Of a stretch of DNA of 64,000 nt, positions 52,490 to 53,430 are shown one piece after another. Source of the stretch: Mustelus asterias (lineage: Eukaryota); the NCBI RefSeq assembly GCF_964213995.1, contig NW_027590123.1, forward strand, positions 2,356,001 to 2,420,000, given 5' to 3'. Under the pieces are notes generated by a model that had not been told where the DNA came from, searched no databases, and saw only the letters and a list, made by a program, of their open reading frames with translations. The position numbers were made by a program, and so were the translations under genes. The number at the start of each line of letters is the position of its first letter. Position 1 is the stretch's first letter.

Positions 52490-52535
52490 ATGAGGTCGGC
52501 GATTTCTCTCAGTTTGTTGCTGACTTTCTTATCCG
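52490..52535 (+). CDS. IgH V leader exon (MRSAISLSLLLTFLS-G)
   Basis: Hydrophobic signal peptide with phase-1 donor GTGAGT at 52536. Confidence 0.9.
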
Positions 52536-52669
52536 GTGAGTAGTTTTTTTTTTTATTGTCTAAGTCTCTCACAGTTACTGTCTCAGTTTTAGTCTATCTC
52601 TGTAATATTCCAGAGTCAAAAATTATTCCACCAGGATTAATCCTCGGGTTTTTTGATCTATTTTTACAG

Positions 52670-52989
52670 GTGTCCGGGCGCAGGTTGTGTTGACTCAGCC
52701 AGAGGCAGAGACCGGGCGTCCAGGAGGCTCCCTGAAACTGACCTGTAAAACCAGCGGCTTCGATCTTGGCAGCTACTGGATGGGCTGGATCCGACAGGTT
52801 CCCGGGCAGGGGTTGGAGTGGCTGGTTAGCTACGGTAGTTCATCAAACAACAACTACGCTCCAGCAATTAAGGATCGATTTACTGCGTCCAAAGACAATT
52901 CAAACAACATCTTCTCTTTGCAAATGACGAGGCTGAAGACCGAAGACACCGCCATCTATTACTGTACAACAGCAGTGGTAACTGGGTGG
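52670..52989 (+). CDS. IGHV: IgM-type VH exon fused in frame to D sequence (germline-joined V-D-D)
   Basis: Acceptor [60 protein letters not shown]...KDRFTASKD...EDTAIYYC then TTAVVTGW. No 23-RSS after YYC; a 12-RSS follows instead. Confidence 0.95.
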
Positions 52990-53017
52990 CACAACAGTTA
53001 CTGTCAATACAAAAACC
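52990..53017 (+). promoter_or_regulatory. 12-bp-spacer RSS (D-type 3' signal)
   Basis: CACAACA + GTTACTGTCAAT (12 bp) + consensus nonamer ACAAAAACC. Confidence 0.88.
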
Positions 53018-53343
53018 CTCAGCACTAATTGACCGAGACTGGGTCAGTGCTCTGTTTTACCATCCAACATTATTTGCAGTGCTGTATTATTTATGTCCAG
53101 CTCTGTACAAACAGCGAGAATCAAATGGAAAATTTATGATAACTATTCAATTATCATTTGGTGTTTTCAATAACATGTTCATGTTATACCCGGTGAAATA
53201 CAAAACATAAGGGTTATTTATGTAGAGCGAACGGTATCCACAAATACAATAATAATTTCATGAATATTAATTGACTTTGCTTTTCCTCAGGTTTGTGAAT
53301 ATTTAAAATAATCGTGGCTTTTCTGTCTATTTTTTGCAGGGCC

Positions 53344-53382
53344 AGTTACTGTATGACCCAGCCAAGGGAATGTGACACTGTG
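53344..53382 (-). promoter_or_regulatory. 23-bp-spacer RSS of JH
   Basis: Nonamer position AGTTACTGT (non-consensus), 23-bp spacer, consensus heptamer CACTGTG. Confidence 0.85.
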
Positions 53383-53430
53383 ACTACTTTGACTACTGGG
53401 GACAAGGGACCATGGTGACGGTGACTGCAG
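53383..53430 (+). CDS. IGHJ: IgH joining segment (YFDYWGQGTMVTVTA)
   Basis: WGxG motif, donor GTAAGA at 53431, preceded by an RSS. Confidence 0.95.

Follow-up and report, generated by a model that had tools for sequence, protein, structure and literature searches.

An IgM-family minilocus of Mustelus asterias with a probably germline V-D1-D2 fusion and no constant exons in the assembly

What becomes of an antibody heavy-chain locus whose V, D1 and D2 segments are already fused in the genome while its JH is still unjoined? Such a locus lies in the window, i.e. the whole stretch of 64,000 nucleotides of Mustelus asterias DNA analysed here (NW_027590123.1, positions 2,356,001 to 2,420,000). A first-pass annotation took it for the source of a semi-invariant antibody. 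We consider it likely that this is an IgM-family minilocus whose V, D1 and D2 were fused by two RAG-type 12/23 deletions in the germ line, whose constant (C) exons are missing in the assembly, and which is an orphan giving no heavy chain. The features concerned are the following, in window coordinates.

44000-52250, + strand: 5' flank, belonging to a diverged, single-copy branch of the IgM cluster family (sisters are 94-96% identical to each other upstream)
52391-52399, + strand: TATA-like box of a putative VH promoter, identical in 8 aligned sisters
52490-52535, + strand: leader exon 1, with ATG, GT donor and in-frame splice to V
52670-52965, + strand: VH exon up to YYC, open frame, PF07686 V-set E 5.8e-17
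52966-52989, + strand: V-D-D junction of 24 nt, directly after YYC
52966-52968, + strand: trimmed V 3' remnant, whose first base is not the G of all split V ends (44/44 begin GCA)
52969-52978, + strand: D1 core, 10 of 14 nt, trimmed at both ends, exact to D1 of 31/44 split clusters
52979-52989, + strand: D2, 11 of 12 nt, 3' end untrimmed, exact to D2 of 16/44 split clusters
52990-53017, + strand: D2 3' 12-RSS, native to the 14-member D2-J clade
53018-53343, no strand: D2-JH intervening DNA of 326 bp, 98.0-98.5% identical to L020, L011 and L022, within the 14-member D2-J clade
53344-53382, - strand: JH 23-RSS with consensus heptamer, nonamer identical to L010 and L022
53383-53430, + strand: JH (YFDYWGQGTMVTVTA), unjoined, with GT donor
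53431-57362, + strand: first 3.9 kb of the J-C intron, 96.7-96.9% identical to L020, L010 and L054 up to the breakpoint
57362, no strand: breakpoint at which the J-C intron joins the interior of a zinc-finger duplicon, with a microhomology of 1 bp; five donor copies share other upstream sequence across this point
57362-64000, no strand: zinc-finger duplicon DNA in place of the Cmu1-4 and TM exons of the sisters; donor collinear, 95-96% identical, ~8.7 kb
60545-61591, - strand: open C2H2 zinc-finger array frame of 348 aa, inside the duplicon

Spliced together, the leader and V exon give a single stop-free frame that runs through the junction. In protein comparison the VH is closest to heavy-chain V regions, and its exon is 92.9% identical to that of the best sister. 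The leader and VH are intact, and the layout is as first annotated: the usual V end and its 23-RSS are missing, a D-like run follows YYC at 52966-52989, and a 12-RSS, 326 bp, a 23-RSS and JH come after it. Split sisters keep the full RSS layout 23 / 12-22 / 12-12 / 23. Between V and D2 of the window locus, the V 23-RSS, both D1 RSSs and the D2 5' RSS are all four absent, and YYC is separated from the D2 3' RSS by 24 nt, whereas the distance is 853-854 nt in the split sisters L065 and L020, i.e. 830 bp are gone. A D segment and JH remain with one 12/23 pair, at 52990 and 53382. The heptamer of the D2 3' 12-RSS, CACAACA, is three bases off the textbook consensus; because the same odd heptamer is common to split sisters, including L009, L014, L020, L054 and L065, this RSS is native. 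A single 12/23 step is left, as had been proposed, and with both RSSs native the final D2-JH joining looks available.

The junction itself can be taken apart against the 44 split clusters. An exact 10-nt piece of D1 and 11 nt of D2 account for 21 of its 24 bases; zero inserted bases are needed, and one substitution is found in the V remnant (germline GCA). The coding ends are trimmed by 1-6 nt. None of 300 shuffled 24-mers could be parsed as well, the best of them leaving 12 bases unexplained versus 3. The D1 and D2 cores that the first-pass annotation had proposed are exact in split clusters of this genome, and the alignment to unrearranged clusters that it proposed resolves the 24 nt into V remnant, D1 and D2. 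RAG cleavage and end trimming give deletions that end near RSSs. Retention of the D1 core takes two deletions whose ends each lie 1-6 nt from an RSS; these are likely RAG-type joins, with RAG itself presumed from their form. Of the proposal that germline RAG-type joining fixed V-D1-D2, the V/D1/D2 make-up is therefore exact, and the germline RAG origin is only likely, on indirect evidence. The idea of a 'hard-wired TTAVVTG' start of CDR3 went too far: V(D)J joining trims coding ends, and the last join here would remove part of D2.

A very similar VDD-J junction (ATAVGTGW) is found in L007/L008, of equal length and identical at 22 of 24 bases. We discarded the idea of a common event, as these loci group with a different D2-J clade (87%) and share a V of 100% identity with the split L059/L064. 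The likeness of the junctions may reflect convergent joining or a short conversion tract.

Upstream of the gene, the window locus departs from its sisters. The promoter had been called intact; this holds for the TATA-like box and the last ~100 bp, which are conserved, and not for the segment from -170 to -110, where several positions invariant in 8 aligned sisters differ. The 5' flank is of an old lineage, and from FR3 into the intron the locus groups with a young clade. As this change of lineage precedes the junction and L010, a split cluster, is mosaic as well, the structure probably reflects crossover or conversion between clusters rather than an inter-cluster RAG join. Other elements of the 5' part of the window are a ~172-bp insertion at 51812-51983 that is missing from every sister flank scored and that is presumably a SINE; a degenerate VH fragment 11 kb upstream (41499-42001, + strand), with 54% identity to the main V, stops and a break in FR3; and LINE reverse-transcriptase-like frames on the minus strand (957-2375, 6590-7642 and 26292-29326), the longest of 821 aa.

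Several observations indicate that the V-D1-D2 join is very probably germline. A 25-mer of CDR2 occurs only once in the genome with at most one mismatch. For the 5' flank, the best non-self match among the 40 candidates scored is 84-88% at 50400-52450 and 88% at 44000-46500, where 90-95% is reached on shorter pieces only. With the CDR2 search and the flank searches (40 candidates scored in each of the latter), no split version of the locus was found in the assembly. Since the CDR2 word is single and the 5' flank single-copy, the assembly consensus shows the joined state at a unique locus, and a single lymphocyte clone would lose out in such a consensus. The locus resembles germline-joined genes in that RSSs and intervening DNA are excised, the junction derives from D1 and D2, and there is little or no N addition. 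Private substitutions amount to two in V (among 84 V exons), none in the leader intron and one in D2-J; these counts ruled out hypermutation, which had been suspected from clustered FR3 changes. Germline joining took place elsewhere in the genome, because two pairs of loci share junctions with diverged flanks: L002 and L003 carry one junction on two contigs with 5 differences in D2-J, and L007 and L008 have theirs in common on two contigs with different JH.

Public sequencing runs, whose species may differ from that of the assembly, were also compared with the locus. Contigs of four runs (X1, X10, X4 and X7) were matched to 52640-53120. Among the contigs listed, none bridges the junction, and wherever their ends hang loose the sequence is that of a split V or D2. 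The letters at 52898, 52921 and 52923, specific to the V of the window, are absent from all listed contigs that cover them; one X1 contig of low depth is identical over 52764-52827. None of 24 public runs listed, among which there was no RNA run, contains half of the query words, and these word shares say little, as ~61% of the query 31-mers also occur in sister clusters.

Two other origins of the join have to be weighed against a germline one. The assembly might have captured a VDD-J intermediate formed somatically in a lymphocyte of the tissue sequenced, which we regard as unlikely. VDD-J is a frequent somatic intermediate in the nurse shark thymus, as described in PMC2435157, the FR3 letters of the window V are missing from the contigs listed for the four public runs, and L039, L042, L043 and L062 have three different junctions despite being 100% identical in V and D2-J. 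However, the flanks of the window locus are unique and its split version was not found in the assembly, the two private V changes represent no excess of the kind left by hypermutation, and the junction is devoid of N bases, in contrast with the N stretches that PMC2193156 reports in somatic light-chain joints. It is less likely by far that the join results from an inter-cluster RAG event or from a non-RAG deletion. The first of these was suspected from the mosaic structure, with a 5' flank 76-88% identical to sisters versus 97-98.5% for D2-J and intron, and it was largely ruled out by the position of the lineage switch upstream of the junction (FR3 has 3 differences from clade members versus 12 from the older clade) and by the split cluster L010, equally mosaic without any join. 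As for the second, a single homology-driven deletion would not leave a D1 core with two near-RSS endpoints.

If germline joining within the cluster thus probably made the V-D1-D2 cassette, which chain could it encode? No Cmu1-4 or TM exons were found on the strand of the locus over the 46.6 kb that separate it from the next cluster, which faces the other way; the only matches are that cluster's own exons on the other strand, and sensitive blastn/tblastn searches over 32.5 kb found no C exon. Weak tblastn matches (E 0.02-0.09) in the replaced DNA proved to be minus-strand zinc-finger noise. In sister clusters, Cmu1-4 and TM lie 8-16 kb downstream of JH. In the 14-member D2-J clade, Cmu1 is present ~9-10 kb downstream of D2/J in 12 loci (11 by pattern and L013 by tblastn), the two others being the window locus and L022. 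Among eight VDD-J loci that could be tested, seven have at least Cmu1 (L002, L003, L004, L005, L006, L007 and L043) and the window locus does not; L008 was left out of this count, as its contig ends too soon. In the sister L020, the constant region comprises four C1-type exons together with a secretory tail and a TM exon. The match of its C4 to mu chains covers both domain and tail with E 1e-44, and the top entry is a multi-domain IgG hybrid. By homology, the constant region of the cluster family is of the mu type. Lacking its own Cmu1-4 and TM exons in cis, the window locus is a truncated derivative and not a complete minilocus.

No heavy chain is expected from the window locus, because a frame continued past JH meets a stop 8 codons into the intron, and splicing would find no C exon. 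The first-pass annotation had missed the absence of the constant region, and its semi-invariant antibody fails on that point: with no Cmu1-4 or TM on the strand in 46.6 kb, a finished VDDJ would find no splice target in cis. The fused VDD copy is most likely a constant-less orphan. The intact V frame, splice sites and both RSSs would fit a recent loss of the constant region or some use of the locus.

At 57362, the homology to the sisters stops; in the sister intron, a long CA-rich stretch of low complexity adjoins this point. Many contigs with IgM clusters also carry, interspersed among these, zinc-finger duplicons of the type that follows. An apparent resumption of IgM homology past the deletion was rejected: past +15.6 kb, the match to L020 (96%) corresponds to an L020-specific insert, and L013 and L011 stop matching L020 at the same place. 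No displaced C region with a reciprocal breakpoint was found among nine C-bearing stretches without known V.

Two scenarios would nevertheless give the cassette a constant region. Assemblies tend to go wrong at low-complexity tracts, and there is a small chance of a misjoin at 57362; the germline join would then be real and the loss of the constant region a mis-assembly, the true locus being a complete VDD-J-Cmu with a semi-invariant antibody, as modelled in the first annotation. The intact leader, V, RSSs and JH, the position of the break at the edge of the low-complexity tract and the presence of at least Cmu1 in 7/8 testable VDD-J loci speak for it. However, the break is blunt, with its 1-bp microhomology between unrelated sequences, rather than a jump from repeat to repeat; the donor duplicon is 93-96% identical to 39 other copies scored and is therefore a distinct copy; the clade member L022 also drops IgM homology, at a different place; and none of the nine orphan C regions examined begins at a matching position. 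The other scenario, to which we give somewhat less credit still, is that the VDD is used in trans with the constant region of L011 (C91:2441909-2458801, - strand), through an inversional 12/23 join across 48.4 kb or switch-type recombination between the inverted J-C introns. L011 is a V-DD-J locus and the head-on neighbour of the window locus, and its Cmu1-4 and TM frames are open. The 23-RSS of the L011 JH, 48,398 bp away, has the same reading direction as the window 12-RSS, and the stretches from D2 to the intron of both loci share 97.7% identity along 4.4 kb, one being inverted relative to the other. Sharks are also known to express V regions with the C of another cluster, as described in PMC4279169. 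Opposing this, the local JH lies only 326 bp away and would compete, and inter-locus joins accounted for 1 of 58 thymic VDD-J clones in the nurse shark data of PMC2435157. The review PMC5192425 places rearrangement within clusters, and switching follows immunisation according to PMC4279169, so that the cell must already have a receptor. Were use in trans nonetheless to occur, improbable as it is, the window locus would be a pre-assembled V cassette for a semi-invariant antibody of the TTAVV type, and would mark a first move away from cluster use in the direction of a translocon. On the same slender premise, germline RAG without TdT would still be converting young IgM duplicates stepwise into every partial join, including V-DD-J, V-D-DJ and V-DDJ. 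In L011 itself, an extra T in JH shifts the frame inside the J core, as in L002, L003 and L013, so that the final joining step would have to include trimming.

We therefore return to the orphan locus, for which the following history can be proposed. In germ cells of an ancestor, RAG would have acted without TdT, and two 12/23 deletions would have fused V, D1 and D2. A separate rearrangement, blunt and of the end-joining type, would have removed the constant region before or after V-D-D joining. D2 and JH could still be joined by RAG in lymphocytes, and the resulting transcript would run into the intron stop or into non-Ig DNA without giving a heavy chain. The locus would then represent one dead-end copy of a birth-and-death array, in which fragments with C alone or V alone occur as well.

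The rest of the genome contains many related events. Two pattern searches (60 and 74 hits) gave at least 84 distinct loci of the cluster family, of which 44 are fully split V-D1-D2-J and 28 are joined; these numbers are lower bounds for this subfamily only, with one of the 74 V hits left out, three duplicate loci dropped, and 12 of the 84 loci unclassified or counted as not joined (four with one long D, four unparsed, four degenerate or cut). The joined loci comprise nine VDD-J, eight VD-D-J, five V-DD-J, three V-D-DJ, two V-DDJ and one VDDJ. Zero untemplated bases are found in 13 of the 28 joined junctions, a generous count as pooled segment variants served as reference, and P bases are present in L022 and L029. 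The 15 other junctions leave bases unexplained, which by eye look like later substitutions. Joined copies occur beside split or less-joined twins with 99-100% identity (L050/L058/L004, L039/L043 and L059/L007). In particular, the split V-D-D-J locus L050 (C127), the V-DD-J locus L058 (C306) and the VDD-J locus L004 (C667) form a stepwise series with 99.3-100% identity, the latter two having the same D remnant. In L039 (C104), L062 (C773), and L042 and L043 (both on C110), V and D2-J are 100% identical with three joins, i.e. two V-DD-J types and one VDD-J derived from the first. These joins represent either very recent germline activity or captured somatic joins.

Partly or fully germline-joined IgH clusters are already known, and the window locus is another of them. 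As described in PMC2193156, VD and VDD clusters were found in the horn shark by Kokubu et al. 1988, and they resemble the window locus in that a genomic V is fused to D with JH unjoined, amid split clusters of the same isotype. According to the same account, expression of the germline-joined IgH of the horn shark was not detected. The window copy differs from these clusters by its lack of constant exons. Furthermore, split and joined copies are 97-100% alike here, which permits a base-by-base parse of the junctions, an exercise that PMC2193156 calls difficult for H chain genes. The nurse shark NS4 light-chain genes with germline-joined VJ (Lee et al. 2000, PMC2193156) share with the window locus the clean excision of RSSs, trimmed ends and little or no N addition, and some joints have P bases; germline joints show 'little evidence of TdT activity' according to PMC2193156. 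NS4 joined genes are expressed in pups according to that paper; unlike them, the window locus is a heavy-chain one and only partially joined (two of three joins).

The configuration and RSS logic are identical to those of the VDD-J intermediates ('2R') that arise somatically at IgM miniloci in the nurse shark (Malecek et al. 2008, PMC2435157). These intermediates are clone-specific and often mutated (9/15 in PMC2435157), whereas the window copy is single-copy with two private V changes, its split counterpart not having been found. Nurse shark IgM1gj, the model for a pre-set antibody, also has a germline-joined IgM-class V region, as described in PMC5192425 and PMC4279169. It is, however, fully VDJ-joined with three C domains and abundant in neonates, whereas the window locus has an unjoined JH and no C domain; it therefore has neither the full VDJ nor the C exons of an IgM1gj-type gene. 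A literature search, with most primary shark IgH papers outside its coverage, returned no paper on constant-less germline VDD-J or on germline V-DD-J.

In sum, the feature is real and its parse right, the join is probably germline, and the functional conclusion first drawn from it is probably wrong for the window copy. As a single locus it matters little, being a known kind of gene that is probably dead. The account in PMC2193156 (Lee et al.) holds heavy-chain germline joints too diverged to dissect and leaves open the role of RAG, TdT and RSSs. With 28 of 84 clusters joined, near-identical twins, and junctions mostly without N and in some cases with P bases, the activity of RAG at IgH in germ cells, its order and the lack of TdT become directly testable. 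The seven VDD-J copies with Cmu1 are better candidates than the window locus for a semi-invariant antibody.

Other loci of the family have irregular structures. L007 (C1179) has Cmu1 at +11 kb, and Cmu2-4 were not found in the 20 kb examined; its partner L008 is on C1007. L022 (C242:31781-33223) is a VD-D-J locus with its P base at the join, constant-less within 20 kb, whose IgM homology ends at +2.46 kb. V-less clusters, in which C exons and part of the J-C intron are fused to unrelated DNA, are present on C128 at ~235000-262000 (L146-L149), on C444 at ~178000-195000 (L150-L153) and on C131 (L134-L135); in C444, the fusion lies within JH and the splice donor is kept. In L085, L087, L090 and L098, which form a diverged subfamily with a non-canonical V heptamer, one 23-nt D lies between V and JH and is possibly an old D1-D2 join. 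Finally, the split cluster L027 (C166:172k) has a D1-like sequence at the D2 position, between D2-type RSSs.
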